Origin: Chloroflexota bacterium
GTDB lineage: Bacteria > Chloroflexota > Anaerolineae > 4572-78 > J111
DNA length: 20,220 nucleotides
Direction of reading: 5' to 3'
Assembly: GCA_020049115.1 (NCBI GenBank)
Contig: JAIFLK010000258.1
Span: forward strand, 1 to 20,220
The notes under the pieces are model-generated. The model did not search any database and was not told where the DNA came from. It was given only the letters and a program-made list of their open reading frames with translations. Of this stretch, positions 10 through 20,220 are shown in pieces (positions within the stretch are counted from its first letter, which is position 1; every line of letters begins with the position of its first letter). The translations under genes and the position numbers were made by a program.

Positions 10-1683
10 CTACTTATAAAATATCCGCAAGAAAGGGCGCATGGCTAAATTAGGGTTATCAGAAGTGGCAAAGAGTTTACCATTATTATCATAACGGTCA
101 GGCGTATAAACTGCCAAACGCATAACCGTCGCGTTATCGTTATATAGCTCAATAAACTCAGCGGTCATATCCCACCCTTTTTCAGACCCTGACGGATTAA
201 TCTGGCTAATAGGCGCAACCCAATGATTTTTGGCGGGGCGGCGTTTAACATTCTGAACAGGAACAGGGGCGTTATTCCATGTAATACTATCCTTTGACCA
301 ATCATCTTGAATGGTAAAAAGTTCAATCCAAGTAGGATTGGAGGTTGGAGTGGGTTCATCCTGTTGAAAGAGCGTAAACCAAGCCGTCTGAATCTCCTTA
401 CCTGGCGGCATGGAGTCAAGCGGAAAGGTGATGTAATATTTGGAGGCACAAGGCCATAAAACCAACCTGGTTTGGTTTTGGATGTTGACCAAAGACTCAC
501 CCGCATAATTTTTATTGCCCCATTGCGTCCAAAAGTCTAAACCTTGCCCACAATTTTGCCCCCCACCTACCACCGCGTCAATAACCATAGGTATCATCAC
601 CCCATTATCAACCCCATTTTGAATGGTCATGCTAATGACTTCCTCTCCAGGAGTAATGGCGGTGGGATTAAAAACCAACCGCCCCCACGTACTAGGCTTA
701 TCATCCACCGCCGCCAAAGGCCAATGGGTGGTCGTAATGGGTACAGTGATACCCACATTATCACGGTCATAAACCGCAACAGCCATGCGCCATTCGGTAT
801 CATTGGCAGGGCGTTCCATCAACCCTAACGCCGTAAAAGGAAGCGAGAAATTAAGCCGCCACCCTAAATCATCTTTTATATTCGTGTTAAAAACTCCCTC
901 AAAAGCAGTCCCCGTTGTAAAGGTGAAAGCCTGATTTTCTTGCCACCCCGTGCCATTGCCTTGATAAATGGCTCTAGTATTCGCATCAGGTGGGTCATTT
1001 GAGGCCGTTTGCGCCACAAATTTGTAATCATTCAAGCCAGGTTGCGCCTCATTTTGGCTATTCAAGTGCAGATAAATCGTAGCTCCATCCCATTTAGCCA
1101 AATCATTTTTAATGGGGTTAGCCTCCCGCCATAAATAACGGTCAGTAACATTTACCCACACATTTAAAGCATTGTCATCATACCCCACCCGCACATCGGT
1201 ATAATTATTCGCCTCATCAATTTTACCAAACCAGGTCATGCCCATCTCTTGCACCGCTATCGGCGTAGTCGTGAGACGAGGCAAATAAGGCGCATTGATA
1301 CGGCGGAACGGGTCAGGCGGAATAGGGGTGGCGGTAGGGATAGGCGTATCAGTGGGCGTGGCAGTGGCGGTCGCGGTCTCGGTGGCCGTTGCCGTCTCCG
1401 TCGCGGTGGCTGTCTCCGTCGGCGAAGGCGTTACGGTAGCCGTGTTGGTGGGCGAAGGAGGCATGGTGGCGGTATTAGTGGGTGAAGGCGTTGCCGTCGC
1501 GGTGCTAGTGGGCGTATTGGTTGGCACTGTATTAGGAGTGCCACTATCACTACTTATCATGGGCAAATAAACGGCTGTGCCTTGTTGCGCCCCCACTTGC
1601 ACGGGGGCAAAACTCAGCCCAATAACCACTAAAACGCCTACACCCATCGCTAAAAGCCCATGTAATTTTTGAGTATGTGTCAT
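10..1683 (-). CDS. Secreted protein with a Thr/Pro-rich linker, a CBM9/DOMON-like carbohydrate-binding-like middle domain and a C-terminal DNRLRE-like domain
   Basis: 557-aa ORF. Hydrophobic N-terminal signal peptide (LLAMGVGVLVVIGLSFAPVQVGAQQ), then ~90 aa of TPS/TNTAT repeats. The segment 'VRVGYDDNALNVWVNVTDRYLW' resembles the CBM9-like family-9 fold. The C-terminal 'DSITWNNAPVP' matches the TWNN(R/A)P signature of DNRLRE domains. Domain calls are from memory of the family motifs. Confidence 0.6.
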   Translation of the reverse strand: MTHTQKLHGLLAMGVGVLVVIGLSFAPVQVGAQQGTAVYLPMISSDSGTPNTVPTNTPTSTATATPSPTNTATMPPSPTNTATVTPSPTETATATETATATETATATATPTDTPIPTATPIPPDPFRRINAPYLPRLTTTPIAVQEMGMTWFGKIDEANNYTDVRVGYDDNALNVWVNVTDRYLWREANPIKNDLAKWDGATIYLHLNSQNEAQPGLNDYKFVAQTASNDPPDANTRAIYQGNGTGWQENQAFTFTTGTAFEGVFNTNIKDDLGWRLNFSLPFTALGLMERPANDTEWRMAVAVYDRDNVGITVPITTTHWPLAAVDDKPSTWGRLVFNPTAITPGEEVISMTIQNGVDNGVMIPMVIDAVVGGGQNCGQGLDFWTQWGNKNYAGESLVNIQNQTRLVLWPCASKYYITFPLDSMPPGKEIQTAWFTLFQQDEPTPTSNPTWIELFTIQDDWSKDSITWNNAPVPVQNVKRRPAKNHWVAPISQINPSGSEKGWDMTAEFIELYNDNATVMRLAVYTPDRYDNNGKLFATSDNPNLAMRPFLRIFYK

Positions 1684-2954: not shown

Positions 2955-3013
2955 CGTTAAGCGAGTCAGCGATTATAAGGCTCAAAGCCTTATAATCGCT
3001 GACTCGCTTAACG
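2955..3013. repeat. Perfect 27-bp-stem palindrome (cgttaagcgagtcagcgattataaggc-tcaaa-reverse complement), a composite of the GCGAGTCAGC repeat and the TTATAAGG hairpin core
   Basis: Reverse complement of 2955-2981 equals 2987-3013. 'agcgagtcagcg' occurs twice in tandem (2944-2955, 2961-2972) and again, inverted, at 5481-5553. Confidence 0.85.
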
Positions 3014-4393
3014 TGTCTCAATGCTTAAATTAACGTCGGCGGGGGTGAAATAAAGGGTCGCATTACCCTGACTCACCGCCTCTAACGCCTCTTGTTTTCG
3101 TAAGGTATTAAAAATCGCCAGCTTATTTGGCAAAGGTAACTCCTCGCCTAACCCATTAAGGAAGGCTTGCACCTTAAACGCCTCCGCCTCACCCGCCGTC
3201 AACGCCTCCACTTGGGCATGGTCACGCCGCAAGGCCAACAGTTGCCCACGCATCTGCTCCGCCTCAATTTCACCTTTAATCTGTTTCAACTTCGTTTCAT
3301 TTTCACTCTCTTGCTTTTGTTGCCGATTGAGACGGTTGGTGGTTTCAGTGATAATTTCCTGTAATATCCGTTGCGTGGCGGCATCTTTACAGGAAATAGA
3401 GCGCACCTCCACCGCATTGAGTTGCACCCCGCGCTCGGTATAAAACGTCATATCACTTTCTAACACCGCCTGATAAATGATTAAATTGAAACTCGCCAAA
3501 AATTTCTCCAGCGTCACCTGTGACACCGATTGAATGATGGCACTGCGAGCATGGGAGCAAATATCGCCTGGCGTGTCATCGGTTTTGCTAATCATGGCCT
3601 CAAAATCCGCCACCGCCCAAAAAAAGGTAATGCCAATCGTTAATTCTACGTTATCTTGAGTCCGCGCCTCAAACTCATACCACATGAACTTCGGACGCAA
3701 ATCAAACTTGGTCAGGCGCAAATCGCGACGCTCTTTATGCAGCCCCGTTGACCAGCGCAACTCCACAATTTCGGAGTAAGGGTCAAGAAAAAAGGCACGG
3801 TCAGGGTCGGTGCCGCGCTTAATGGTATATTTCCCTGTTCTATCACGGATAATAACGACTTCGTTATCTTCCAATAAAATCCGTTGACGCACTTTTACAA
3901 TTTCTTGTTGGGCGGTTGGAATAAAAACTTGCGGTGTCGTAATTAACTCCAACTGCCCCGTATGCGTATCACGCACCATGACGGCAGTTTGTTCATCAAT
4001 GTTAATCCCATCTTCAACTTTAACGATGATTTGCTCAGTCGGTTGCACATAGATACTTTGCTCCCCTCGTTCCACCCGCACCATGCCTGTTTTTTCGTCC
4101 ATGATACGAACATATTGATGTTTTTTCAGGGGAACAGCCTGTAATTCAACATCAATTTCATCAGTTGCTGACAGAAACAATAATTTTGGCCCAATTTCAA
4201 TCCGTTTTTCACCTGTTAAAACATTAAGCACCCGTACATAATCGGTTGGCCCCAAAACAGTCGCCTTACGCCGCTTCACCCGCCAAAAGGGGCGCGCCCA
4301 ACATTGGCCAGGCCCATTCACCACCCACCGTTTGCTAAAGGCTGCAATGAGTAACTGTTCGTCATCTTTGAGAAAGTATAGCCAGGGAATCAT
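3008..4393 (-). CDS. Major vault protein (MVP) homologue, short bacterial form: ~4 MVP repeats, an SPFH-like shoulder domain and a cap-helix region
   Basis: 461-aa ORF. Repeated ~50-aa modules 'YVRVLNVLTGEKRIEIGPK', 'YVRIMDEKTGMVRVERGEQSIYVQP', 'AVMVRDTHTGQLELITTPQVFIP' and 'VVIIRDRTGKYTIKRGTDPDRAFFLDP' resemble MVP repeats. The segment 'TQDNVELTIGITFFWAVADFEAMISKTDDTPGDICSHARSAIIQSVSQVTLEKF' aligns with the eukaryotic MVP shoulder (…ADHARLQLQLAYNWHFEV…[27 protein letters not shown]…). A following E/Q/A-rich helix resembles the cap-helix. Confidence 0.65.
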   Translation of the reverse strand: MIPWLYFLKDDEQLLIAAFSKRWVVNGPGQCWARPFWRVKRRKATVLGPTDYVRVLNVLTGEKRIEIGPKLLFLSATDEIDVELQAVPLKKHQYVRIMDEKTGMVRVERGEQSIYVQPTEQIIVKVEDGINIDEQTAVMVRDTHTGQLELITTPQVFIPTAQQEIVKVRQRILLEDNEVVIIRDRTGKYTIKRGTDPDRAFFLDPYSEIVELRWSTGLHKERRDLRLTKFDLRPKFMWYEFEARTQDNVELTIGITFFWAVADFEAMISKTDDTPGDICSHARSAIIQSVSQVTLEKFLASFNLIIYQAVLESDMTFYTERGVQLNAVEVRSISCKDAATQRILQEIITETTNRLNRQQKQESENETKLKQIKGEIEAEQMRGQLLALRRDHAQVEALTAGEAEAFKVQAFLNGLGEELPLPNKLAIFNTLRKQEALEAVSQGNATLYFTPADVNLSIETR

Positions 4394-4412: not shown

Positions 4413-5357
4413 TTATGATTGAGGCGATTGCTCAGGAAATTTCACTAGGGCGTTAAAATCAGTTAGGGTGGGAACGGTGAAAAGATGGTCACTGAGTTGG
4501 TCAAAGGTGGTGGAGTCCTTAATGCTGTTTAATTTTGCTATCAGGTAAGGGGGCAGTGGCCCAAATCTAAGTACCAATAAGCGCATGAGCAATTGTCTTT
4601 TCCCTTTAACCTCGCCAATGGCTTCGCCTATGGCCTTACCTTTCGCTTTGGCTTTAAGGGCAATACGTTCACTCCATGTTAATTCAACTTGAGCTAAATG
4701 AGTCATAATATCACTTTCTCCTACAGCTATTTTTTTACTAGGTAAATAGGTTTGGACTAGATTGACTAGATAAAGTTGGTCGGCTAATTCTAGTTCACTA
4801 TTCATCACCGATTCTAAGGCGGCTAATTTGACCGCAGCTTTCTCATGACTTGCTGATTTCATTAAGGTGGCGAGGGTAGCGGCAACGGGGTCGCCACTTA
4901 TCAGGTAATCATGGCTTGGTAAATCCCGTATGCCCACTTGCCCATAACGAAAATGAATCAATTCCTCCTCGAACAACGATTCACGATAACTTTTCCAGGC
5001 TAGGCCACCTACTTTGGGCAATAAAACCAGAGTTAAGGGTAAAATGGGCTTTTGGCGTAAAACCCGTAGTAAAGCATAATATTCAAAAAGACGTTGGGGC
5101 AAAGTAGTTTTATTTTGCTTTTCTATCTCTACATGAACAATAATGACTTCAGGTTGCCCACTAAATGTTTCGACTTCGGCCACCACATCGGGAATACGGA
5201 GGAAGGTATTAGGCAGGTTGATGATGAGTTCTCTTTCTAAAAAGATGAGGGTTTTAAAATTAAGATGAATTGCTTTTTCAGGAAAAAATAGCGTGACAAA
5301 TTCGGGTAGGAAACGATGAAAGAACTCTTTGAACAAACGGTCATGTAAGGTTGACAT
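4413..5357 (-). CDS. Rpn-family recombination-promoting nuclease / putative transposase (PD-(D/E)XK N-terminal domain plus C-terminal DUF4351)
   Basis: 'MSTLHDRLFKEFF' matches the Rpn/YhgA N-terminal HDxxFK motif. 'VIIVHVEIEKQ' is the PD-(D/E)XK core. The C-terminal 'KGKAIGEAIGEVKGKRQLLMRLLVLRFGPLP…' resembles DUF4351. The ORF track starts 14 codons further upstream at 5399; the Met at 5357 fits the family N-terminus better. Confidence 0.6.
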   Translation of the reverse strand: MSTLHDRLFKEFFHRFLPEFVTLFFPEKAIHLNFKTLIFLERELIINLPNTFLRIPDVVAEVETFSGQPEVIIVHVEIEKQNKTTLPQRLFEYYALLRVLRQKPILPLTLVLLPKVGGLAWKSYRESLFEEELIHFRYGQVGIRDLPSHDYLISGDPVAATLATLMKSASHEKAAVKLAALESVMNSELELADQLYLVNLVQTYLPSKKIAVGESDIMTHLAQVELTWSERIALKAKAKGKAIGEAIGEVKGKRQLLMRLLVLRFGPLPPYLIAKLNSIKDSTTFDQLSDHLFTVPTLTDFNALVKFPEQSPQS

Positions 5358-5480
5358 GAGAAAATTATAGCCGTAAAACCACCTAGAGACAATAAACATG
5401 GCGTTATTTTGTAAGGCAAGGGGTTAGCCTAATTTTGACATATTTTAACTATTATGGAAAATCAAGCTAAATCAAACTTT

Positions 5481-9888: not shown

Positions 9889-10980
9889 ATGTTATGGCAA
9901 AGCTACTATACCCCTGAATCGCTTGATGAAGTTTTAGACTTGCTGGCAGAACATCGTGAAAAAGGGCCTCGTTTATTGGCTGGCGGCACGGATTTAATGG
10001 TTGAAATTGAGCGTAGCCAGCAACCCCCCAAAATTGTCATTGATGTAAGTTGTATCCCTGGTTTAGATACTATTTGGCAAGATGAACAAAAAAATATCCA
10101 TTTAGGGCCATTAGCCACCCATAATCAAGTGGTTGGCTCTAAATTATGTGTCCAAAAAGCCTTCCCTCTTGCCCAAGCATGTTGGCAAGTCGGCTCACCC
10201 CAAATTCGTAATCGTGGCACGGTGGCGGGCAATATCGTAACCGCGTCGCCCGCGAATGATACCATTACGCCTCTCGTGGCTTTGGGCGCGACCCTGACCC
10301 TGAAAAGTGTGCGCGGCAGTCGCGCCGTCAAAATTGATGAATTTTTCAAAGGGGTGCGCTCAACGGTGCTAGAACCTGATGAAATGGTGGTTGATATTAG
10401 CTTTCCCGCGCTCAATGGCTACGAAATCGGCACATTTATTAAGGTTGGCTTGCGGCGCGCTCAGGCTATTTCCGTGGTAAACATTGCGGTAGTTTTGGGC
10501 ATGTTCGCCGATACCATTACTCGCGCTCGGATTGCTTTTGGTAGCGTTGCCCCAACGATTATCCGCTCTTTTGATGCGGAACGCTTTTTGAGTGGCAAAG
10601 TGATGACCCAAGAGGTCATTGACCGTGTGGGGGCGATTGCCGAGCAAACCATTTTTCCCATTAGTGATGTGCGCGGTTCCGCCGAATATCGCCGTTATAT
10701 GGTTAAAACCGTGACCCGCCATGCGCTGCAATCTCTCAGCCAAGGCACCGAGTCGGACATCTTTCCGCCCAAACCCGTTATGTTATGGGGCAAAACTAAT
10801 GGCTCATTTAAGCCGCATGAGGGTGGTTCAGTGGTGCATACGGTGGATAAAAATGAGCCGATTAGCACCACTATTAATGGTCAACCGCAGGCGATTAGCG
10901 GGGCAAATGGCAAAACCCTCCTCCGCATGTTACGCGAAAACGCGAACTTGACTGGTACGAAAGAGGGTTCGCGAACTTGA
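9889..10980 (+). pseudogene. Xanthine-dehydrogenase-family FAD-binding subunit (CoxM/XdhB-like). Its 3' end already encodes the start of the [2Fe-2S] domain; it is truncated by a frameshift from a 29-bp tandem duplication
   Basis: FAD_binding_5 motifs are present ('LLAGGTDLMVE', 'GTVAGNIVTASPANDTITPLVALGATL') and the CO-dehydrogenase flavoprotein C-terminal region is present ('RGSAEYRRYMVKTVTRHAL'). The tail '…[33 protein letters not shown]' corresponds to the N-terminus of the 2Fe-2S small subunit and then runs into SRT-stop. Confidence 0.7.
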
Positions 10981-10998
10981 CTGGTACGAAAGAGGGTT
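10941..10998 (+). repeat. Exact 29-bp tandem duplication (cgcgaacttgactggtacgaaagagggtt ×2) inside the fused FAD/[2Fe-2S] gene
   Basis: Positions 10941-10969 are identical to 10970-10998. 29 is not a multiple of 3. Deleting one copy reads through in frame as …[18 protein letters not shown]…. Confidence 0.9.
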
Positions 10999-11369
10999 GC
11001 GCCGAGGGCGAATGTGGGGCCTGTACGGTGATGTTAGATGGCATTGCAGTGGATAGCTGCCTCGTGCCAGCCCCGCGCGCCCATCAAAGTGAGATTGTTA
11101 CGATTGAAGGATTGGCGCAAGGTGAAACCCTGCATCCTGTTCAACAGGCATTTATTGATGAAGGCGCGGTGCAATGTGGTTACTGTACGCCAGGCTTTTT
11201 GATGAGTGGAGCTAATTTGATGGAAGAACGTAAACGCCCGACTCATGATGATATTAAGCAAGCCATTACGGGTAATTTGTGTCGCTGTACGGGATATTAC
11301 AAAATATTGCAAGCGTTAGAGCAATCCTGTGGCGTGGTTTCGGCCAAGCCTAGAATGAAGCATAATTAA
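10977..11369 (+). pseudogene. [2Fe-2S]-binding small-subunit (CoxS/XdhC-like) portion of the disrupted fused gene; the ORF begins at TTG and lacks its own N-terminal ~35 residues
   Basis: Plant-ferredoxin-type motif C-x4-C-x2-C-x11-C ([22 protein letters not shown]) and the second cluster CGYCTPGF…CRCTGY are present. The N-terminal β-grasp residues are encoded in the upstream ORF. Confidence 0.7.
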
Positions 11370-11406
11370 AATTTGGGTAGCTGATTTATGACTGTAAGGA
11401 GGTATT

Positions 11407-12330
11407 ATGACCACATTAACGCTAGAAATGGCTGAGACCACGAATTTAACTGAAACACCCTCTGACCCATACCTTTACGGTTGGCGACAGGTGACGCGTT
11501 ACGCGCCTGATGGGGAGATGGTGTTTGTGCTTCAGCCCTTAACCTTAGATGATATATTACACCCCCAAGAGGATGACCAACGGATGCACGCGCCTTACCA
11601 TGAACGAATTTGTCGTTATTTAGCCGATGTTTTTGCAACCTATTTAGCCCATGACCCGACTGTTCAGGTCTTTACTGATTTGCGGGTGGCGTGGAATCAT
11701 CCTTACATTGACCCGCATACACCTGATATTTCGGTGGTCTTTGGGGTGAATAATCAGGGGCAGGAATGGACTACTTTTTATGAAGCCAAAGAGGGAACGC
11801 GGCCAACTTTGGTGGTAGAAGTGACCTCACCCTCCACGCGATTGTTAGATTTGGTGGATAAGTTTGACGAGTATGAGCGCGTTGGCTTAGAGTATTACAT
11901 TATTATTGACCGTGTTAAACAGCGCAGTAATGTACAACGGCGAGTGTTAGGGTTTCATTGGACACCACAGGGTTATGAAAAGTTACCTTTGAATGAACAA
12001 GGTTGGTTGTGGTTAGAGCCTGTGCGGGTTTGGGTCACTTGGGAAGACGATGAAATAGTTTGTTATGATGAACAAGGCAAATCTATTCCTAATTATCTCG
12101 CTGTAACCCAGGCCTGGGTTGAAGCGGAGGCTAAAGCTGAGGCGGAGGCTACGGCGCGGGTTGAAGCGGAGGCTAAAGCTGAGGCGGCGGCTACGGCGCG
12201 AGTTGAAGCGGAATCTAAGGCGCATGCAGCGGAGGCCAAAGCTGAATCCGAAGTTAAAGCGCGGGTTGAACTTGAAGCCCGTTTACAACAGCTTGAAGCG
12301 GAGTTGCGCCGTTTACAAGGCAATAGTTAA
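11407..12330 (+). CDS. Uma2-family (DUF820) restriction-endonuclease-like protein with a C-terminal Ala/Glu/Lys-rich coiled-coil repeat extension
   Basis: 'RPTLVVEVTSPSTRLLDLVDKFDEYERVGLEYYIIIDR' matches the Uma2 core (P.l.vEV.SpsT…D…K…Y…Gv.EYwivD). There is a strong RBS aaggaggt 6 nt upstream. The C-terminal repeats are (VEAEAKAEAEATAR)n and end in LQQLEAELRRLQ. Confidence 0.7.
   Translation: MTTLTLEMAETTNLTETPSDPYLYGWRQVTRYAPDGEMVFVLQPLTLDDILHPQEDDQRMHAPYHERICRYLADVFATYLAHDPTVQVFTDLRVAWNHPYIDPHTPDISVVFGVNNQGQEWTTFYEAKEGTRPTLVVEVTSPSTRLLDLVDKFDEYERVGLEYYIIIDRVKQRSNVQRRVLGFHWTPQGYEKLPLNEQGWLWLEPVRVWVTWEDDEIVCYDEQGKSIPNYLAVTQAWVEAEAKAEAEATARVEAEAKAEAAATARVEAESKAHAAEAKAESEVKARVELEARLQQLEAELRRLQGNS
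12118..12290 (+). repeat. Tandem ~54-bp coding repeats (gaagcggaggctaaagctgaggcggaggctacggcgcgggtt…) encoding the Uma2 C-terminal coiled-coil
   Basis: Near-identical units are visible at 12118-12171 and 12166-12219, with degenerate units after. Confidence 0.6.
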
Positions 12331-12336
12331 ATGGTC

Positions 12337-12369
12337 AGCCCTTATAAGGTTTTGAACCTTATAAGGGCT
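12337..12369. repeat. TTATAAGG-family hairpin (agcccTTATAAGGtt-ttg-aaCCTTATAAgggct) between the Uma2 gene and the molybdopterin subunit gene
   Basis: Perfect 15-bp arms. The outer arms are identical to the 1729 copy, while the inner core is the AGGTT/AACCT variant. Confidence 0.8.
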
Positions 12370-12427
12370 TAAAGTTGTCTGTGGCGATTTTTTTGAAAAT
12401 CCTAAAATTATTTATAAGTAGGTCAAC

Positions 12428-14662
12428 ATGAGCAATCAACTCATTGGCACATCTATCAAACGAATCGATGCACGCGGCAAGGTCACAGGGGAGGCCATTT
12501 ACCCTGGTGACCGTAATTTTGGCGATGAATTGTGGCTTAAAATACTCTTCGCCCGCCGCCCCCATGCCCGCGTGGTCAAAATTAATACTAAAGCTGCCGA
12601 AACGTTGCCTGGTGTATTGGGCATTTTAACGGCCAAAGATGTCCCCGTCAATCAATATGGTTTGCAAGTCCCTGACCAACCCGTTTTATGCGGCCCTGGC
12701 TCCAATAAAAAAGGGGGCGATATTGTGCGCTTTATCGGCGACCATGTGGCGGTGGTGATTGCGGAAACGGAAGAAATTGCCACCAAAGCCCGCGATTTAA
12801 TTCGGGTGGAGTATGAGGATTTGCCCGTAGTTTATAATGCGGAATATGCCATGTCAGGGCAAGCCCCACAGTTGCACCCCAATGTGGCGAAAAATATCGC
12901 GGCTTATCAGCGTATTCGCAAAGGCGATACGGACGCGGCCTGGAATGAATGTAATATTATTATTGAAGGGACGTATCAAACACCATTTCAGGAACATGCC
13001 TATTTACAGCCCGAAGCGGGTACGGCTTACATGGACGCTGAGGGACGGATTACAGTACATTGCGCGGGGCAATGGACATGGGAAGACCAACAGCAAATCG
13101 CCCATGCTTTGGATTTGCCACCCGATAAAATTCGGGTGATTTATGATGCCATTGGTGGGGCATTTGGTGGCCGCGAAGATATGAGTGTGCAAATCGTTTT
13201 GGCTCTGGCCGTTTTGCGGATGTATCAACGGCATGGCAATCGCCGCCCCGTTAAAATTATTTGGACGCGCGAAGAGTCCATGATTGGTCACTGCAAACGT
13301 CATCCCATGCTTTTTCGCACGAAATGGGGCGCGAAACGGGACGGTAAATTGGTGGCGGCGGAGGTGGAAATTATTGCCGATGGCGGCGCGTACATGTACA
13401 CGAGTAACAAAGTGTTAGGCAATGCCGTTATGTGTTGCACGGGGCCGTATGAATTTAGCCATGTCAAAGTGGACGCGTACGCGGTTTATACCAATAATTT
13501 GGTGTCGGGCGCATTTCGCGGGTTTGGTGCGCCGCAAGCCCATTTTGTGGCGGAAATGCAAATGAATAAATTGGCCGAGAAAATGGGTAAAGACCCCGTA
13601 GAAGTACGGCTGAAAAATTTGCTCACCGTTGATTCTACGCTGTCCGTTGGCACGACTATCCCTGGCGGAGTCAGTTTGGAGAAGGTGCTGCGGGAGGCCG
13701 CTTGGCAATCTAACTGGCGCAGTCGGGTTGGCCCGCGCGGGGAGAATGACCCTGATTTTCCTGATGAGTTGCCGCGTTTAGTGAAGGGCAGTGGCGTGGC
13801 AGTGGCCTTCAAAAATATCGGCTTTAGCTTGGGCTATCAAGAAAATAGCTGGGCGGGGGTTGAATTTCATGGCGAAAGCGATATTGAGCAAGTGATTGTT
13901 AAAATTGCGGGGGCAGATGTGGGGCAGGGGCATCACACGGTCATGGCGCAAATCGCGGCTGAGGTTGCGGGGGTGGGCATGGATAAAGTGAAGGTTGAGG
14001 CTTCCGATACCGCGTTTACCGAAAGTTCTGGCAGTGCGAGTGCGTCGCGCCTCACCTTTATGGCGGGTAATGCAGTTAAAGAGGCGGCGCAATTTGCGCT
14101 CAAGAAATGGCGGTCAGAAGAGCGTCCTGCCATTGCCGAGGCCACCTGGCTTGCCCCGAAAACCACCCCCTTTGACCCACAAACGGGGCATAGTTTACCC
14201 AACTTTGCGTATGGTTATGTGGCGCAGGTGGTGGAGGTGTTGGTGGATACCGAGACGGGCAGTATTACGGTGCAACGGGTGGTTTGCGCCGATGACGTGG
14301 GCAAGGCGATTAACCCTGAGCAAATTATCGGGCAAATTGAGGGCGGGATTGTGCAGGCGCATGGGTATGCGCTGTTGGAAGATTTTCGCATGGACAAGGG
14401 GCAGGTTTTAACGCCCAATTTCACTACCTATCTTATCCCTGGGGTGTATGATATTCCGAAACAAATTGTCCCCATTATTGTGGAAGACCCACATCCCCAA
14501 GGCCCCTTTGGGGCGCGTGGCATGGCCGAAATGCCGATGATTCCATACACGCCCGCCGTCGCTGCCGCCGTATTTGATGCCATTGGTATTTGGTTTGATG
14601 AGTTTCCTTTGACCCCAGAACGGGTTTTACGGGGGCTAGGCAAGGTGCGGAGTCGGCTGTAA
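12428..14662 (+). CDS. Xanthine dehydrogenase / aldehyde oxidase family molybdopterin-binding large subunit
   Basis: 744-aa ORF. N-terminal a/b-hammerhead region 'IGTSIKRIDARGKVTGEAIYPGD'. The active-site segment 'SGAFRGFGAPQ' matches the XDH/AOX 'AFRGFGGPQ' motif rather than the CODH AYRCSFR or AYRGAGR loops. Confidence 0.8.
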   Translation: MSNQLIGTSIKRIDARGKVTGEAIYPGDRNFGDELWLKILFARRPHARVVKINTKAAETLPGVLGILTAKDVPVNQYGLQVPDQPVLCGPGSNKKGGDIVRFIGDHVAVVIAETEEIATKARDLIRVEYEDLPVVYNAEYAMSGQAPQLHPNVAKNIAAYQRIRKGDTDAAWNECNIIIEGTYQTPFQEHAYLQPEAGTAYMDAEGRITVHCAGQWTWEDQQQIAHALDLPPDKIRVIYDAIGGAFGGREDMSVQIVLALAVLRMYQRHGNRRPVKIIWTREESMIGHCKRHPMLFRTKWGAKRDGKLVAAEVEIIADGGAYMYTSNKVLGNAVMCCTGPYEFSHVKVDAYAVYTNNLVSGAFRGFGAPQAHFVAEMQMNKLAEKMGKDPVEVRLKNLLTVDSTLSVGTTIPGGVSLEKVLREAAWQSNWRSRVGPRGENDPDFPDELPRLVKGSGVAVAFKNIGFSLGYQENSWAGVEFHGESDIEQVIVKIAGADVGQGHHTVMAQIAAEVAGVGMDKVKVEASDTAFTESSGSASASRLTFMAGNAVKEAAQFALKKWRSEERPAIAEATWLAPKTTPFDPQTGHSLPNFAYGYVAQVVEVLVDTETGSITVQRVVCADDVGKAINPEQIIGQIEGGIVQAHGYALLEDFRMDKGQVLTPNFTTYLIPGVYDIPKQIVPIIVEDPHPQGPFGARGMAEMPMIPYTPAVAAAVFDAIGIWFDEFPLTPERVLRGLGKVRSRL

Positions 14663-14728: not shown

Positions 14729-14756
14729 TTGACAAAATTAGGATTCAGGCTATAAT
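14729..14756 (+). promoter_or_regulatory. Consensus sigma70 promoter TTGACA-16-TATAAT driving tRNA-Leu
   Basis: TTGACA at 14729-14734 and TATAAT at 14751-14756 with a 16-bp spacer. The tRNA 5' end at 14770 is 13 nt downstream of the -10. Confidence 0.75.
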
Positions 14757-14769
14757 CCAATAGATATTC

Positions 14770-14850
14770 GCCTCGGTGGCGGAACGGCATACGCAGCAGG
14801 TTGAGGGCCTGTGCCCGATGGGCGTGAGAGTTCAAATCTCTCCCGAGGCA
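14770..14850 (+). tRNA. tRNA-Leu (anticodon GAG), class II with long variable arm
   Basis: Acceptor stem GCCTCGG/CCGAGGC with discriminator A. D-arm GCG(G)…CGC. Anticodon stem GCAGG/CCTGT with loop TTGAGGG. Variable arm GCCC-gat-GGGC. T-arm GAGAG-TTCAAAT-CTCTC. No CCA is encoded. Confidence 0.8.
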
Positions 14851-14866
14851 TCTATATAAAACAACG

Positions 14867-14894
14867 AACCCCCTATTACGGGGGTTTTTTGTTT
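14867..14894 (+). terminator. Intrinsic terminator after tRNA-Leu (aaCCCCC-tattac-GGGGGtttttt)
   Basis: 5-7-bp GC stem followed by T6 and gtttt. Confidence 0.75.
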
Positions 14895-14967: not shown

Positions 14968-17900
14968 TTAATACGTTCTTTGGAAAGTAACCTCAAAGGA
15001 GCTATGAAAAAGCGAAATAGCATTGGTATCACCATTTTCTTCACAGGTGCGGTTGGTGGCAAAGTCTGGGGTGATATGTTCGGCAATGTCGCTCGTGCCA
15101 CCCATTACTTGCACTTGATACGTTCCTTTGAACATGGCAAAATCAATGTGACCTGCTTCAGGCTGTCCGATCAAGTTAGTTTTAGTTTCGGTTTGTGGCG
15201 TAACAAAACCATCTGGTACGGGCGACCATTGGATTTTGATGGGTAGACCATTAATGCCTTGTCCAGAGGGGTCAATTACGTGGACAAATATATGGTGCTT
15301 GCCTTTGTTTTCGCAAGGGGTCAATTCCCGAATGCTGACCAAACGGAAATCCACATTGGGCGTGGCGGTGGCTTCAGGGGTGGGGGTGTCGGTGGGCGGA
15401 CGTGGAGTGCTGGTTTGGGGGATGGGGGTTTCTGTAGGAACACCCGTTGAGGTTGGCGTGGTGGTAGGTGTATCAACCATAGTCGGGGTACTGGTTGGGG
15501 TGGTGGTATCTGTGGGAGTTGGCGTATTGGTCGGGATGGGGGTCATGGTAGAGGTACTGGTGGCGGTTGGGGTGTCGGTTGGGGTGGGGGTTGGCGTGGT
15601 GGTGGGGGTGGTCGTCTCCACAAAGGGCAATGCAGCAGCCATGCCCGCAACCGCGCCGTCATCGCGCATTTGTTCGGCTATGGTACGGTTATCTCCTGGC
15701 AATGCGCCACCATCATTGAGCGAGGCGGCTAAAACATCCATAATGGCCCAGGGGAGCATGATACCACAGAGCCAGACAACGAATAAGATAACGAAAAGTA
15801 AACGAAATTTGGCCCCAATAGTACGTTTGGCAAACCACATAGAGACGGAAGTGCGATTGGATGGAGCGGCGGTGGCAGTGGCTTGTTTTTGTAATTTTCT
15901 ATTAGAAACGGCCTGCATTTGCGGCGCGATCTGGGGTGGGCGTTGTTCGGTAGAGATTGTACGCGGTGCAGGTTTGGCTACGGTTTCTAACGGCGGCGGG
16001 GTAGGATTAGACTGAACCACTGTTTTCTCTTTAGGTCGTCGCTTTTTGGCCGCTGTAGGCGCAACTTTAGTTGGCTCGGCGGGGCGGCGGTTAGAGCGAT
16101 TAGATGTGCCGCTAGTGGGCGCGGTGGGTTTAGAGGGGTTGCGCGGCGGAACAGGTGGCGCGACTGCGGGCATGCCTTGTGTAAATTGCGAGTGAGTGTT
16201 GGCGGGCTGAAAGGCTTGGGTGTGTTGGGAGTGAACGTTGGCGGGTGTAATAGGCTGGGTATGTTGCCCATGTACTGTTGGTTTGAGGGGCTGAGTGAGT
16301 TGCGAATGATTGACTGGCCCAGTCGGGCGGAGGGGCTGGGTGTGTTGACCATGCACGGCAGACGCGCTAGGGCGAATGGGTGGCGTATAGGCCGAAGGGG
16401 GGGACATGGGAGCCATGGGTTGGGTGAATTGGGAATGGTTGGGCGAGACGGCGGGGCTAATCCGTCGTGGTGGAGCCGATTGGGGGCGTGAGGGCGGCAT
16501 GGGGTGCAACGGTACAGGCGGATTGGCGCGCACGGGTACGGGCAAATTGCTTGGGTTGACGGGCTTAAGGCGTACGGGTGGTAGAGACAGGGCATGCCCT
16601 GTCTCTACGGGTAGCCCACGTTGACCAGAAGCGTTCCGCATACGATTCATGACCTCGTCTAACCGTTCACTTAAGAGACGGCTAAAAGTCATGGCGAGCA
16701 TGGGATAACGGCTGAGAAAGCGGTCAAAGTCATTTTTGGTCAGTACCCAAACTTCACTATCTGTAACTACTTGGGCGGTGGCGGGTTGCCCTTTGCCAGA
16801 GATGAGGCCAATTTCGCCCAGAAAGTCACCTGGCTTAAAGGTTTCTAACAACATGGCCCCTTGCGGAGTTGCTACCCAATGTTCAATTTGCCCTTTAGAA
16901 ATGAAATACATTTTATCGGCAGGTTGACCCGCTTGGTAGATGACTCCGCCTGCACGATAATAATCGGGGCGTAAATAAGAGGATAATTCATCTAATTGGG
17001 CGCGGGAGAGGCCGCCTAAAATAGCAATCTTTTGTAAGTGAGTTTCTGAGGTATAATCTTCTGCCGCCTTGAATTGAGCGCGTAAGGCTTGGCTGAGGGA
17101 GGCACTGAGTTGGGGATATTTGACCAACAGGTGGTCAAAATCAGCCCGATATAAGCCCCATAAATTGGTGTCAGCAATAGAGTAGGCGGTGAAGCCGCGA
17201 GTTTTGCCCGTGAGCAGTGCGGCCTCGCCAAAATATTCACCTTCCGTTAGGCGTGCTAGCAACTTCGTGGGGCGGCCTGGGGTTTCATCAAAAGTATCAA
17301 CCACGCCAGAGTCGATAATGTACATGGCATCGCCAGGCGCGCCTTGCGGAAAGATGATTTGCCCCGCAGGAACGTGACGTAATAAGAGTAAATTTGCCAT
17401 GTCATTGAGGGCGGCCTCGTCTAAATTGGCAAACATGCCGATTTGTTTCAGAATGGAAATAGCATGGGCTTGGTCAGCCGTATCTAAGCGGGAACTTAAG
17501 TTTTGACTTAAGTTGGTTTTAATGCTAGGGGTGGTTTCTACCAAAGCGGTAAAATCAGTTGGGCTAAGTTGCCAGATGATGGTTTCGGTGGCTGCTTGGG
17601 CGGTATAGGCATGGGGCTTGTTGGATAAAACCGCCATTTCGCCAAAGGCATCGCCTGGCATCAGTTCGGTAAAATCATTATCCAATTGGCCGAGCAATCG
17701 CACAATGCCCTGGTCAATGAAGAAAATGCCCTGCGGGGCTTCTCCGTCACGGTAAATTGTGCCGTGGGGGTAATAACGGCGCGGGATTAACCGTTGGGCG
17801 ATTTGGGCTAATTCATAGGGCGATAGATTTTGTAATAATTGTACTTGACTCAATTGCATGGTTAGCTGCGGATGATAAGGCACAATGGCGCGCTCCATCG

Positions 17901-18270
17901 CTAAACTGAGCGCGAGGCCAATTTCAAAATGCTCATCAATCACCTCGGTCATGGCGGAGGTGGTTAATGCCCAGGCGGTCACATCAGTGGTGGCTTGGGC
18001 GGCCATTGCATGGCTTTGACCTAAGAAAAAATCGGCCTCGCCTAACAAACTGCCTGAGCCTAAGTTGGCTAAAATTGTGCCATCACTGGCGACCAGTTTT
18101 ACCCAGCCTTCTTTAATCAAGTAAAGGGTATCGCTATCGCTACCGATTTGAAACAATGTTTCAGCGGGGCGATAGCTTTCCAGGCGTAACCGTTTGCCAA
18201 TAGCACGTTGAGCTTCCTCGCTCAAATGGGCAAATAGCGGACTATTTTTAATAAATTCTTCTTTCATCAT
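14968..18270 (-). CDS. Large membrane protein: four tandem cyclic-nucleotide-binding domains, Pro-rich H(S/G)Q(F/H/L)TQ repeats, one transmembrane helix, a Thr/Pro-rich linker and a Cys-pair C-terminal extracytoplasmic β-domain shared with the next two genes
   Basis: 1100-aa ORF. Four cNMP-binding modules each carry the (F/L)GE(M/A/I)(A/G)L phosphate-binding-cassette-like motif ('LGEADFFLG', 'FGEMAVLSN', 'FGEAALLTG', 'LGEIGLISG'). ~7 repeats of 'VNHSQLTQPLKPT / VHGQHTQPITPAN'. TM 'FRLLFVILFVVWLCGIMLPWAIM'. Linker 'TTTPTTTPTPTPTDTPTATSTS…'. C-terminal 'PCENKGKHHIFVHVIDPSGQGINGLPIKIQW…GHIDFAMFKGTYQVQV…NRTCEENG'. Confidence 0.7.
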   Translation of the reverse strand: MMKEEFIKNSPLFAHLSEEAQRAIGKRLRLESYRPAETLFQIGSDSDTLYLIKEGWVKLVASDGTILANLGSGSLLGEADFFLGQSHAMAAQATTDVTAWALTTSAMTEVIDEHFEIGLALSLAMERAIVPYHPQLTMQLSQVQLLQNLSPYELAQIAQRLIPRRYYPHGTIYRDGEAPQGIFFIDQGIVRLLGQLDNDFTELMPGDAFGEMAVLSNKPHAYTAQAATETIIWQLSPTDFTALVETTPSIKTNLSQNLSSRLDTADQAHAISILKQIGMFANLDEAALNDMANLLLLRHVPAGQIIFPQGAPGDAMYIIDSGVVDTFDETPGRPTKLLARLTEGEYFGEAALLTGKTRGFTAYSIADTNLWGLYRADFDHLLVKYPQLSASLSQALRAQFKAAEDYTSETHLQKIAILGGLSRAQLDELSSYLRPDYYRAGGVIYQAGQPADKMYFISKGQIEHWVATPQGAMLLETFKPGDFLGEIGLISGKGQPATAQVVTDSEVWVLTKNDFDRFLSRYPMLAMTFSRLLSERLDEVMNRMRNASGQRGLPVETGHALSLPPVRLKPVNPSNLPVPVRANPPVPLHPMPPSRPQSAPPRRISPAVSPNHSQFTQPMAPMSPPSAYTPPIRPSASAVHGQHTQPLRPTGPVNHSQLTQPLKPTVHGQHTQPITPANVHSQHTQAFQPANTHSQFTQGMPAVAPPVPPRNPSKPTAPTSGTSNRSNRRPAEPTKVAPTAAKKRRPKEKTVVQSNPTPPPLETVAKPAPRTISTEQRPPQIAPQMQAVSNRKLQKQATATAAPSNRTSVSMWFAKRTIGAKFRLLFVILFVVWLCGIMLPWAIMDVLAASLNDGGALPGDNRTIAEQMRDDGAVAGMAAALPFVETTTPTTTPTPTPTDTPTATSTSTMTPIPTNTPTPTDTTTPTSTPTMVDTPTTTPTSTGVPTETPIPQTSTPRPPTDTPTPEATATPNVDFRLVSIRELTPCENKGKHHIFVHVIDPSGQGINGLPIKIQWSPVPDGFVTPQTETKTNLIGQPEAGHIDFAMFKGTYQVQVMGGTSDIAEHITPDFATNRTCEENGDTNAISLFHSSFEVTFQRTY
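16130..16620 (-). repeat. Approximate span of the Pro-rich H(S/G)Q(F/H/L)TQ-type ~11-aa coding repeats inside the 14968..18270 gene
   Basis: Repeated 'HSQFTQ', 'HGQHTQ', 'HSQLTQ', 'HSQHTQ' in the translation. The low-complexity DNA generates spurious antisense ORFs (15987..16595, 16177..16491, 16406..16624). Coordinates are estimated, not counted. Confidence 0.4.
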
Positions 18271-18306
18271 GAGACGATTAAGACTTACGCAAAAACCAAA
18301 CCTACC

Positions 18307-18385
18307 CCCCTTAATCCCCCCGAATCGGGGGGAGATTTTGCTCCCTCTCCTACATAGGAGAGGGTTGGGGTGAGGTTTTTGCTTA
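18307..18385. promoter_or_regulatory. Two adjacent GC-rich hairpins (tcccccg-aat-cggggga, ccctctcct-acat-aggagaggg) in the 123-bp spacer between the first and second tandem paralogues
   Basis: Perfect 7-bp and 9-bp stems. T-tracts follow both on the plus strand and none on the minus strand, so they are probably not terminators for the minus-strand genes. Confidence 0.35.
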
Positions 18386-18393
18386 AGTCTTGG

Positions 18394-19446
18394 TTATTTA
18401 ACTCCTTGTTGCAGCACCAGTTGCCACGCGGGCAAACTGTTCTGGCAAAGGGGTAGATTATTTAAGGTTATTTCGGGTATAGGTGGGGTAGTTTTCATAT
18501 TAACCACTTCAACCTGATAAGTTTCAGTTAATTTCATTTGAAAATCGGCATAGCCAGGCTCTATTTCGGGCTTGAAACCCGTGAATAAATGATCTTCACC
18601 ATTCGCCCAACTTACTTTAATTTCGATGCCTGGGATACCTTGACCGAGTGTATCATGAATATAAATTCTCAGCAATCCTGTGTTAAGGTTATCGCAGACT
18701 CCTTTAGAATGTTTGACTGCTAAAGGGGCGTTTAGGTTACGGGTTGGAGTGACTTTAGGGAGAAAGGAGTAGGGCGTAGGGAGTAAGGTGGAAGTAATGG
18801 TTGGACGTAAGGTGGAAGGAGTAAGGGATAGGGTGGCAGTGACCGTTGAGGAGTAGGGTAGAGGGATTAGGGTAGAAGAAGTAAGGGCTAAGGTGGCGGT
18901 CATGGTTGGGGTGGCGCGAGTGGGGGTGTTGGTGGGGCGCGGGGTTGGAGTAATAGTCGGTGTGGTGGTAGAGGTTGGCGTGGGAGTATTGGTTGCTGTG
19001 GGTGTGGTTAAGTAAGTTGACATAAGCGGTGATACTTTGCCCAGGGCTTGGGCTAATTCAACCAGTGCAGCGATGTCTCGGATGTCTCGCTCTTGATTTA
19101 TGTATGCTTCCGTAATAATAATGATGGTTTGGTTTATATTGGGGTCAGCGACGGCGGCTAATCGAGTTTGCGCCTGGTCTAGGTGATGATTATGGGCGTA
19201 GGCCAGGGCAATGAGCCGAATATAAATGGCTTTGGCTGATGGGCGCAAATCCGCAGGTGTGACTGGGAGGGGGCGAGGGTCAAGCAGCCAACCGTAGGTG
19301 AGTGATAAAGCCAAACCCACCATAAAACCAAAAAGAAAACCGCCCACCCACCAGGCACGGTCATGGGGATTTCGGCGCGGAGTGGGCTTAGACGGTTGAA
19401 CAACTTTGGACAAAGTTTGGTTTTTTAGGGTAGAAAGTAGGGGCAA
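18394..19446 (-). CDS. Membrane-anchored paralogue: short cytoplasmic N-terminus, one TM helix, extracytoplasmic helical region, Thr/Pro-rich linker and the shared Cys-pair C-terminal β-domain
   Basis: TM 'WWVGGFLFGFMVGLALSLTYGWLL'. Linker 'TTPTATNTPTPTSTTTPTITPTPRPTNTPTRATPT…'. C-terminal 'GVCDNLNTGLLRIYIHDTLGQGIPGIEIKVSW…GYADFQMKLTETYQVEV…NNLPLCQNS' aligns with the C-termini of the 14968..18270 and 19520.. genes. Confidence 0.65.
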   Translation of the reverse strand: MPLLSTLKNQTLSKVVQPSKPTPRRNPHDRAWWVGGFLFGFMVGLALSLTYGWLLDPRPLPVTPADLRPSAKAIYIRLIALAYAHNHHLDQAQTRLAAVADPNINQTIIIITEAYINQERDIRDIAALVELAQALGKVSPLMSTYLTTPTATNTPTPTSTTTPTITPTPRPTNTPTRATPTMTATLALTSSTLIPLPYSSTVTATLSLTPSTLRPTITSTLLPTPYSFLPKVTPTRNLNAPLAVKHSKGVCDNLNTGLLRIYIHDTLGQGIPGIEIKVSWANGEDHLFTGFKPEIEPGYADFQMKLTETYQVEVVNMKTTPPIPEITLNNLPLCQNSLPAWQLVLQQGVK

Positions 19447-19519
19447 TGCCTTGTGCTTGCCCCCATTGTGGGTAGGGACAAGCCCTACCCCTACTATCTA
19501 CTTTCTACCTTCTACCATT

Positions 19520-20220
19520 TTAATGAGTTTTTTGTAAGGTTAATTCGTAGGCGTAATGTCCACGACATAAGGAATTACTGCTTTTACGACGGAGGCAATC
19601 ATCCATGTCTAAACAATAGTTAGCCTCAATCAGCCATTCATTCGGAATGTCTTCATCCCAGGTGCTAAGTTTATCACTCACTTGGCTGGTGGCAGGTGCG
19701 CCTCCAACATCACTGGTCACATGGAGGGCGTAGCCATTTTTATACATGTCATATTCTAGCTTCCCTGGCCCCTTTTCACCACTCACATGGGGCGGCACGG
19801 CCTGGTCACTATCTTCAACCGTTACACCGTCTAACGGATTGCCATTAACATCAAGCACCGTTACGAAAATTTGATGTGCGCCAGGACATTGACCGTAATC
19901 AGGATTACGAACCATTTTTTGATGAGTGACCACAAAATCAAACGCGGGTTTAGGTGGCTCAGGCGTGGCCGTAGGTTCAGGGGTATTCGTGGGTGGTTGC
20001 GGGACGGGTGTATCAACGGGAACAGGGGTTTCAGTATCTTCAGGCGTGGTCGTTGCTTCAGCGGTTGCAGTCTCTGTAGGTGTGGCGGTTTCGGCGGGAA
20101 TGGGGGTATCAGTCGGCAATTGAATGGGTGTGGAGGTGTTGGTTGGGACGGGAGTCGCGGTGGCAGCAGGAGTATGGGTCGGGGCGGCGGTGGGTGTGGG
20201 TGAAGCCAACATGGCTACCA
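19520..20220 (-). CDS. Third paralogue, 5'-truncated by the window end: Thr/Pro-rich linker plus the shared C-terminal Cys-containing β-domain
   Basis: The ORF runs to the window edge, so the Met at 20212 is probably internal. Linker 'PTPTAAPTHTPAATATPVPTNTSTP…'. C-terminal 'GQCPGAHQIFVTVLDVNGNPLDGVTVED…GKLEYDMYKNGYALHV…NYCLDMDDCLRRKSSNSLCRGHY'. Confidence 0.6.
   Translation of the reverse strand, partial: VAMLASPTPTAAPTHTPAATATPVPTNTSTPIQLPTDTPIPAETATPTETATAEATTTPEDTETPVPVDTPVPQPPTNTPEPTATPEPPKPAFDFVVTHQKMVRNPDYGQCPGAHQIFVTVLDVNGNPLDGVTVEDSDQAVPPHVSGEKGPGKLEYDMYKNGYALHVTSDVGGAPATSQVSDKLSTWDEDIPNEWLIEANYCLDMDDCLRRKSSNSLCRGHYAYELTLQKTH

Follow-up and report, generated by a model that had tools for sequence, protein, structure and literature searches.

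An extended, unnamed C-terminal domain family and a membrane protein with four cyclic-nucleotide-binding domains in a conserved gene cluster of Chloroflexota

The gene cluster and its products

The DNA analyzed here is a 20,220-nt stretch from a Chloroflexota bacterium (contig JAIFLK010000258.1, assembly GCA_020049115.1), referred to below as the window. At positions 14968–20220 the open reading frame (ORF) listing places three consecutive ORFs on the minus strand whose products end in a related domain of ~120–130 amino acids (aa), and the largest product also carries cyclic-nucleotide-binding (CNB) domains in an array. The cluster genes and their products are named G1 to G4, of which G2, G3 and G4 are within the window and G1 lies beyond it. 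The common domain was evident in BLASTP comparisons of G4 with G3 (E 2e-8) and with G2 (E 4e-8), and a hidden Markov model (HMM) of the domain family matched the three window proteins with E-values of 2.7e-52, 4.7e-25 and 3.2e-23. Thus, the three adjacent minus-strand paralogs with a shared C-terminal domain that an earlier sequence-only reading of this DNA had described were borne out, but the window cuts the cluster. Related loci are designated L001–L013, L016, L022 and L024, with L016 denoting the source contig extending past the window (window position = 28271 − L016 position). On L016 the full cluster consists of four genes on the same strand, encoding G1 (394 aa), G2 (355 aa; L016 7684–8751), G3 (350 aa) and G4 (1100 aa) with spacers of 66, 73 and 123 nt in gene order, and G1 is a fourth paralog just past window position 20220. 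No in-frame stop occurs between the first ATG of G2 and the window end, so that this gene is truncated by the window. Exact look-up recovered the identical G4 protein on seven metagenome contigs.

In a scan of one genome per species of the Genome Taxonomy Database (GTDB), G4 orthologs were found in at least 10 Chloroflexota genomes, which were metagenome-assembled genomes (MAGs) of Anaerolineales, Anaerolineae and Caldilineaceae. When the family HMM was applied to six-frame translations of related loci, an identical four-gene order was observed in L001, L005, L006, L007, L008, L010 and L011 in addition to L016: three domain-bearing ORFs of ~340–420 aa are followed by a CNB protein of ~1050–1130 aa. 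As both the paralogy and the gene order recur in the related loci, they are conserved features and not the product of local duplication. The four-gene cluster is conserved in Anaerolineales and Caldilineaceae of the Chloroflexota.

G1–G4 are all single-pass membrane proteins with the N-terminus inside and the C-terminus outside (N-in/C-out), each with an extracytoplasmic terminal domain on a Thr/Pro-rich stalk. The features within the window are collected in Table 1. The sequence-only reading had assigned all of the proteins one layout of cytoplasmic part, transmembrane (TM) helix, linker and terminal domain. This layout requires amendment for G1–G3, which have a cytoplasmic part of only 5–30 residues and possess an additional helical ectodomain of ~95 aa between the TM helix and the acidic/Thr/Pro linker that precedes the C-terminal domain. 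In the case of G2 the domain and linker were as described, but the gene leaves the window and the TM helix is not within it. The helical ectodomain was modeled as a five-helix bundle following the TM helix, with a predicted local distance difference test (pLDDT) score of 85.6, and matched generic helical repeats only.

The spacer between G3 and G4 has a predicted RNA folding energy of −61.6 kcal/mol (z = −7.1 versus shuffled sequences), with two GC-rich hairpins nested within an outer stem. The equivalent spacers of L001 (z −5.4) and L010 (z −3.3) also are unusually stable, unlike those of L008 and L005; the spacer sequence is unconserved. The element may act in intercistronic processing or attenuation, and could set the ratio of G1–G3 to G4 expression. 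The hairpin in the G2–G3 spacer was no more stable than shuffled sequence.

Table 1. Features of the cluster within the window
Feature	Residues (aa)	Window position (nt)	Strand	Remarks
G4		14968–18270	−	1100 aa; ORF, Pfam
G4 CNB1	1–126	17893–18270	−	Cassette Arg replaced by His; Tyr in most orthologs
G4 CNB2	137–262	17485–17862	−	Cassette Arg replaced by conserved His (18/24)
G4 CNB3	271–400	17071–17460	−	Canonical cassette FGEAALLTGKTRGFTA
G4 CNB4	406–545	16636–17055	−	Cassette Arg replaced by Gln; orthologs His, Arg or Gln
G4 Pro-rich low-complexity cytoplasmic region	546–805	15856–16635	−	
G4 H[SG]Q[FLH]TQ repeats	612–699	16174–16437	−	Six copies
G4 single TM helix	~822–850	15721–15807	−	Sole hydrophobic segment
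G4 extracytoplasmic juxtamembrane segment	851–886	15613–15720	−	Motif GALPGD.R...Q.R.DGA...LPFVET
G4 Thr/Pro stalk	887–972	15355–15612	−	42% Thr, 24% Pro
G4 C-terminal domain	973–1100	14971–15354	−	Full family signature
G3–G4 intergenic spacer		18271–18393	−	123 nt; structured RNA fold
G3		18394–19446	−	350 aa; gene call identical on contigs
G3 TM helix	~31–55	19282–19356	−	After short tail
G3 helical ectodomain	56–145	19012–19281	−	
G3 Thr/Pro linker		18727–19011	−	
G3 C-terminal domain		18397–18726	−	
G2, 3′ part		19520–20220	−	ORF 19520–20212 by first ATG; cut by window end
G2 acidic/Thr/Pro linker		19919–20220	−	
G2 C-terminal domain		19523–19918	−	~20-aa insertion, four Cys

The C-terminal domain family

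The domain was modeled with AlphaFold2 from an alignment of 48 sequences. The model (pLDDT 95.6, predicted TM-score 0.88) is a prealbumin-like sandwich with a seven-stranded core. The domain profile aligned with CarboxypepD_reg repeats over columns 25–88 (hhalign 96.2%, E 2.1e-9), and in an exhaustive search partial, multi-copy matches to the family HMM appeared in giant proteins built of CarboxypepD_reg/Big_1 repeats. These two results indicate that the core is a divergent CarboxypepD_reg-type sandwich, in line with the carboxypeptidase-regulatory or transthyretin-like β-sandwich that had been guessed from the sequence. The same reading had recognized no named family for the domain, which also stood in Pfam and NCBIfam: Pfam matched nothing in this part of the window proteins even at E ≤ 1, and NCBIfam added no match. 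The gathering threshold of PF13620 was not reached, and no family returned for 67 relatives fell on the domain at E ≤ 1e-3. In ten members that were scanned individually, CarboxypepD_reg matches fell on separate domains and none on the family domain. The Foldseek comparison that had been proposed alongside the sequence-only reading retrieved no match at E ≤ 1e-3 in the PDB (best TM-score normalized to the query 0.45), and a profile search of PDB sequences produced matches at chance level only.

Two extensions distinguish the family. The N-terminal extension comprises a strand and a short helix with the motif R-x-L-T-P-C-E-N-x-G-x-H, and the C-terminal extension of ~40 residues carries C ... 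N-S-L-x-H-x-S-x-x-V-x-F. In 119 non-redundant domains most columns conserved at ≥75% are in these extensions, each of which contributes one cysteine of a pair. The conserved Cys pair noted from the window alone proved to be general, with both residues found in 105 of the 119 domains and an even number of cysteines in 112. As the two cysteines are co-conserved, they would be expected to form a disulfide by which one extension is stapled to the other. The residues E15, N16, H20, D28, N107, H111 and S113 are invariant or near-invariant, mostly are located in the extensions, and identity between distant subfamilies is 43–50%. The signature of the G4 domain reads R-x-L-T-P-C-E-N-x-G-K-H-H ... D-F-A-M-F-K-G-x-Y ... 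C ... S-L-F-H-x-S-F-E-V-x-F. The G1 and G2 domains retain one His and an N-S-L-C-x-G-H motif, and have an insertion of ~20 aa and four cysteines. G3 and its L008 ortholog retain the Cys pair, but the His-His and N-S-L-x-H motifs are missing. Overall, the domain is best described as an unnamed, extended branch of the CarboxypepD_reg/prealbumin-like β-sandwich superfamily.

Two more specific assignments were rejected. Transthyretin and 5-hydroxyisourate hydrolase are characterized by a C-terminal Y-R-G-S motif and a His/Arg active site. The domains studied here end in ...FQRTY, ...QQGVK and ...LQKTH and had no PDB sequence match. CnaB-type isopeptide domains have a conserved Lys-Asn/Asp isopeptide pair and a catalytic acid. 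No Lys column reached 75% conservation in the 119 domains, and the likeness to CnaB isopeptide domains is in fold only.

The family was surveyed by word-indexed searches, which retrieved 252 relatives, all labeled "hypothetical" and none with a Pfam domain on this region; the named sources were Chloroflexi, Anaerolineae or Caldilineae. An exhaustive HMM search of 1.84 billion cluster representatives yielded 1201 matches at E ≤ 1e-3, of which 189 reached E ≤ 1e-10, and roughly 100 clusters of the family at 50% identity were observed. Relatives present the domain behind an SRRxALK twin-arginine translocation (Tat) signal (19 proteins), a Sec signal (P0069) or, in ~60 cases, in a TM-linker-domain form. 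An abundant relative of ~243 aa consists of an N-terminal TM anchor, a Thr/Pro linker and the domain. The topology of G4 together with the Tat, Sec or TM anchors of the relatives places the domain outside the cytoplasm, as had been surmised from the window. In L022 (6001–8418) and L024 (6001–8552) the gene for the ~243-aa protein is divergent from a primary rpoD-like sigma-70 gene and is followed directly by a gene for a Thr/Pro-rich protein of 542–604 aa with no Pfam match; the MAG from which L024 derives also carries the four-gene cluster (L007). Among the best 150 HMM matches, 88 contained the full domain, which ended within three residues of the C-terminus in 78 of the 88. A C-terminal sorting signal was rejected as the main explanation of this position because most carriers are N-terminally anchored and the domain is internal in 10 of the 88.

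Partner domains were counted in a Pfam scan of 67 longer members and representatives. The most frequent partner was cNMP_binding (20 members), followed by CarboxypepD_reg as separate domains (10), the glycoside hydrolase (GH) families GH5 "Cellulase" (7), GH42 (5) and GH39 (3), SAF and zf-HC2 (3 each), LysM, SH3_3 and Dockerin_1 (2 each), and Amidase_2, PG_binding_1, FG-GAP_3 and FG-GAP (1 each). Relatives with a GH10-like match also were found. The attachment of a β-sandwich module to GH domains is characteristic of carbohydrate-binding modules, although no GH domain is present in G1–G4 themselves. As other proteins carry the domain next to GH5/GH39/GH42-like barrels, next to LysM, SH3, amidase and PG_binding modules, and in the ectodomain of a true anti-sigma factor of the extracytoplasmic function (ECF) type, it would act as a surface ligand-binding module, for which the most likely ligand would be a glycan or a cell-envelope polymer.

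The resemblance to CnaB/pilin stalk domains and the long Thr/Pro-rich stalks raise a different possibility, namely that the proteins are structural, serving as stalked adhesins or anchors for a filament sheath or cell wall whose assembly or localization is tuned by the CNB array. The several paralogs per genome, with the MAG of L007 also having a 241-aa form (L024), and the Amidase_3 gene upstream of the cluster on L016 are compatible with such a role. However, there is no conserved Lys for an isopeptide bond, each protein has one domain in place of a repeat array, the cluster of invariant polar residues points to a specific site for binding or catalysis, and the fusions to enzymes and anti-sigma factors fit a sensor or binding module better. 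A purely structural function is considered rather unlikely.

Another reading of the same polar residues is that the domain is a small enzyme, or binds metal, outside the cytoplasm, in which case Glu, Asn, His and Ser of the extensions would form the site. Their near-invariance, the level of identity maintained between distant subfamilies, and the pseudo-enzyme-like behavior of the G3 orthologs, which consistently lack these residues, would accord with catalysis or metal binding. Nevertheless, no likeness to any catalytic family was found, and the fold class typically is non-catalytic, the exception being 5-hydroxyisourate hydrolase whose motifs are absent here. Moreover, the domain commonly is appended to proteins that already hold catalytic domains, as binding modules are. 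An enzymatic or metal-binding role thus appears very unlikely.

The CNB array of G4 and the proposed assembly

The order of parts in G4 is four CNB domains, a basic Pro-rich disordered region, the TM helix, the juxtamembrane segment, the Thr/Pro stalk and the C-terminal domain. Pfam matched four stretches of the protein to cNMP_binding (PF00027; E 1.1e-76), which substantiates the four domains discerned previously, and gave no other match in the three window proteins. The canonical phosphate-binding cassette of CNB domains is FGE[LIV]AL..x[PV]R[ANQV], also written FGE[LIV]AL...R[ST]A, in which the Arg binds the cyclic phosphate (PMC2246266). Cassette residues were scored across 24 orthologs and representatives. 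In CNB3 the Arg was retained in 22 of the 24 sequences and the Glu in 23, whereas the Arg position of CNB1 was Tyr, His or Arg. Among the four CNB domains of G4 the canonical Arg is retained only in CNB3. Judged by these residues, CNB3 is likely to be a true cyclic nucleotide (cNMP) site, and one bona fide cNMP site per G4 chain is expected; CNB1, CNB2 and CNB4 may be structural or bind other ligands. Most family members that bear CNB domains have the same four-domain layout. The closest PDB sequence matches of the array were CNB domains of the regulatory subunit of protein kinase A (PKA-R) and of apicomplexan cGMP-dependent protein kinase (PKG).

Regional conservation in G4 was assessed as positional identity among 11 orthologs. 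Values were 55–60% for the CNB domains, 25% for the Pro-rich region, 55% for the TM helix and 66% each for the juxtamembrane segment and the C-terminal domain. The Pro-rich region (21% Pro, 11% Lys plus Arg, 2% Asp plus Glu) contains the "HSQFTQP"-type repeats noted earlier, albeit in six H[SG]Q[FLH]TQ copies rather than seven; the copy number is variable, with two in the L008 ortholog. The TM helix has a basic N-flank, WFAKRTIGAKFR, which indicates the N-in/C-out topology. Low-complexity sequence extends over ~270 residues between the CNB array and the TM helix, and over ~85–90 residues between the TM region and the surface domain. These long disordered linkers on either side of the membrane make rigid transmembrane allostery implausible. 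If cAMP/cGMP sensing is coupled to the surface domain, as the sequence-only reading proposed, a direct conformational link is unlikely.

The interpretation that we favor, tentatively and at slightly less than even confidence, sees the C-terminal domain as a ligand-binding module at the cell surface within an assembly of G1–G4 in which G4 is a cNMP receptor without enzymatic output. The divergence among the paralogs is fixed within a conserved operon, which suggests that they are non-equivalent subunits of one assembly. Thus, G1–G4 together would form a hetero-oligomeric surface assembly in which G3 may be a degenerate, non-binding subunit and G4 a predicted membrane-tethered cNMP receptor. Any link between the exterior and the CNB array would depend on clustering, on the recruitment of partners or on regulated proteolysis instead of rigid allostery, and the conserved TM and juxtamembrane segments of G4 could provide a contact or cleavage site. 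A more elaborate version, in which a stalked four-paralog sensor of an envelope or environmental glycan controls the tethered fourfold CNB array through clustering or proteolysis and CNB3 reads cNMP, is decidedly improbable as a whole; within it, the His-substituted CNB2 possibly integrates other ligands. If the sensor assembly exists, it would represent a hitherto unrecognized type of transmembrane signaling assembly in bacteria, with a cNMP receptor that has a module at the cell surface as its "effector" and not an enzyme, a channel or a DNA-binding domain.

Several observations weigh against the favored interpretation. Three of the four CNB domains are without the canonical Arg, and the array may sense something besides cNMP. 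The conserved polar residues E15, N16, H20, N107, H111 and S113 of the surface domain also would fit a metal or catalytic site. Glycan binding is suggested by guilt by association and fold class only. Furthermore, in the genome from which the window derives the cluster has no linked gene for a cyclase, a sigma factor or another output.

A single membrane span in N-in/C-out orientation, a putative sensor domain outside the cytoplasm, and the well conserved TM and juxtamembrane segments of G4 also would suit anti-sigma-like regulators. G4, and perhaps G1–G3, would sequester or control a sigma factor of the ECF type, which regulated proteolysis would set free upon a signal from outside the cytoplasm, with cNMP modulating the process from inside. 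An ECF sigma gene (Sigma70_r2 and r4_2) is located divergently 260–400 bp upstream of G1 in five loci, L001, L005, L007, L010 and L011. Family members with a genuine zf-HC2 domain exist, as exemplified by P0130 in which zf-HC2, SAF, the family domain and a GH-like barrel occur in this order. A gap of 4 nt separates the P0130 gene from an ECF sigma gene upstream of it, which together with the zf-HC2 domain identifies a true sigma/anti-sigma pair. In contrast, no zf-HC2, RskA or RsgI_N match was detected in G1–G4 or their L008 orthologs. The sequence-only reading, which saw the look of an anti-sigma factor without the domain, was apt in that an anti-sigma domain is missing from the window proteins and present in P0130-type relatives. 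The cytoplasmic parts of G1–G3 are minimal, no sigma gene adjoins the cluster in L006, L008 or the source genome of the window, and cognate anti-sigma genes normally are co-transcribed with the sigma gene rather than divergent from it. An anti-sigma function for the cluster is distinctly unlikely. A gene for a response-regulator/Roadblock-LC7 protein is positioned further upstream of the ECF sigma gene in the same five loci (e.g., the two genes at L005 5452–6072 and 3196–4113, minus strand); both genes are absent at this position in L016, L006 and L008.

Neighboring genes, significance and comparison with known systems

The cluster on L016 is preceded by tRNA-Leu(CAA) (L016 6151–6232) and an Amidase_3 gene. 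On its downstream side it converges with a tRNA-Leu(GAG) gene (window 14770–14850, plus strand), which is preceded by a perfect match to a TTGACA-16-TATAAT promoter (14729–14756, plus strand). A bidirectional terminator hairpin at 14866–14887 is common to this tRNA gene and G4. In L001–L013 the region 3′ of the G4 orthologs (e.g., L008 12999–17235) encodes a Trm112-like 84-aa protein, Peptidase_MA_2, a divergent PCMT and a family 2 glycosyltransferase (GT2). This block is absent from the window, where the tRNA-Leu gene and a xanthine-dehydrogenase-like cluster are located instead, and for this reason the four genes were rejected as parts of the system.

Elsewhere in the window, the xanthine-dehydrogenase/CO-dehydrogenase-type cluster at 9889–14662 (plus strand) specifies FAD, 2Fe-2S and molybdopterin subunits, and an inserted gene for a putative endonuclease of the Uma2 family (11407–12330) separates the genes of the small subunits from that of the large one. 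A 461-aa bacterial protein resembling the major vault protein (MVP) is encoded at 3008–4393 (minus strand; Pfam Vault_3, MVP_shoulder and SPFH/Band_7) and is neighbored by genes for a DUF4236-tetratricopeptide repeat protein (1870–2913) and a DUF4351 protein (4413–5399). The gene at 10–1683 (minus strand) encodes a 557-aa protein with CBM96 and weak CBM9-like matches that probably is a secreted carbohydrate-binding protein.

The fold and superfamily of the C-terminal domain already are known. No description of the architecture of four CNB domains, TM helix and ectodomain, of the four-gene cluster, of the extended Cys-pair family or of its terminal position was found in the databases and literature searched. 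Anaerolineae/Caldilineae-type Chloroflexota occur abundantly in sediments, hot springs and wastewater, and their envelope biology and signaling are almost unstudied. The family defined here is compact, folds confidently in models and is unnamed in databases. It marks many surface proteins, including true anti-sigma factors, GH-like proteins and the ~243-aa family that is beside rpoD in two loci. If the domain binds glycan, it would constitute a new family of carbohydrate-binding modules, and the output of G4-type proteins, once worked out, would extend the cyclic-nucleotide signaling of bacteria by a new mode.

Four known systems offer points of comparison. Pycsar antiphage effectors of the CNB-TM and CNB-TIR types combine a CNB domain with a membrane segment as does G4, and PADLOC models of these effectors match the CNB part of G4. 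Membership was rejected as the matches are confined to the CNB region and no cyclase is among the neighbors; G4 also differs from Pycsar in its large extracellular domain and in belonging to a conserved chromosomal cluster with three paralogs that lack CNB domains.

The CarboxypepD_reg (PF13620)/prealbumin-like superfamily includes the transthyretin-like domain of carboxypeptidase D as well as CnaB, SdrD_B and Big_1-type repeats. In comparison with CarboxypepD_reg, the domain described here has an additional N-terminal strand, a short Cys-bearing helix, a C-terminal extension of ~40 aa, the Cys pair and the polar cluster, and it occurs once per protein, mostly at the extreme C-terminus, and not as a repeat array.

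RsgI anti-sigma factors, which employ carbohydrate-binding or GH-like modules as polysaccharide sensors (PMC10328401), likewise are single-pass N-in/C-out proteins and, in Clostridium thermocellum, display an extracellular carbohydrate-binding or GH-like sensor at the C-terminus; some members of the domain family are true ECF anti-sigma factors with GH-like ectodomains. The window proteins differ from RsgI in that they possess neither an anti-sigma domain nor the periplasmic autoproteolysis domain of RsgI, and no sigma gene is co-transcribed with them; the cytoplasmic part of G4 is the fourfold CNB array.

PKA regulatory subunits and apicomplexan PKG resemble G4 in possessing a tandem CNB array in which some domains are non-canonical, and apicomplexan PKG has four CNB domains of which one is degenerate. 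G4 differs in that a kinase or any other effector domain is absent, non-canonical CNB domains make up three of the four, and the protein is anchored in the membrane and has an extracellular domain.

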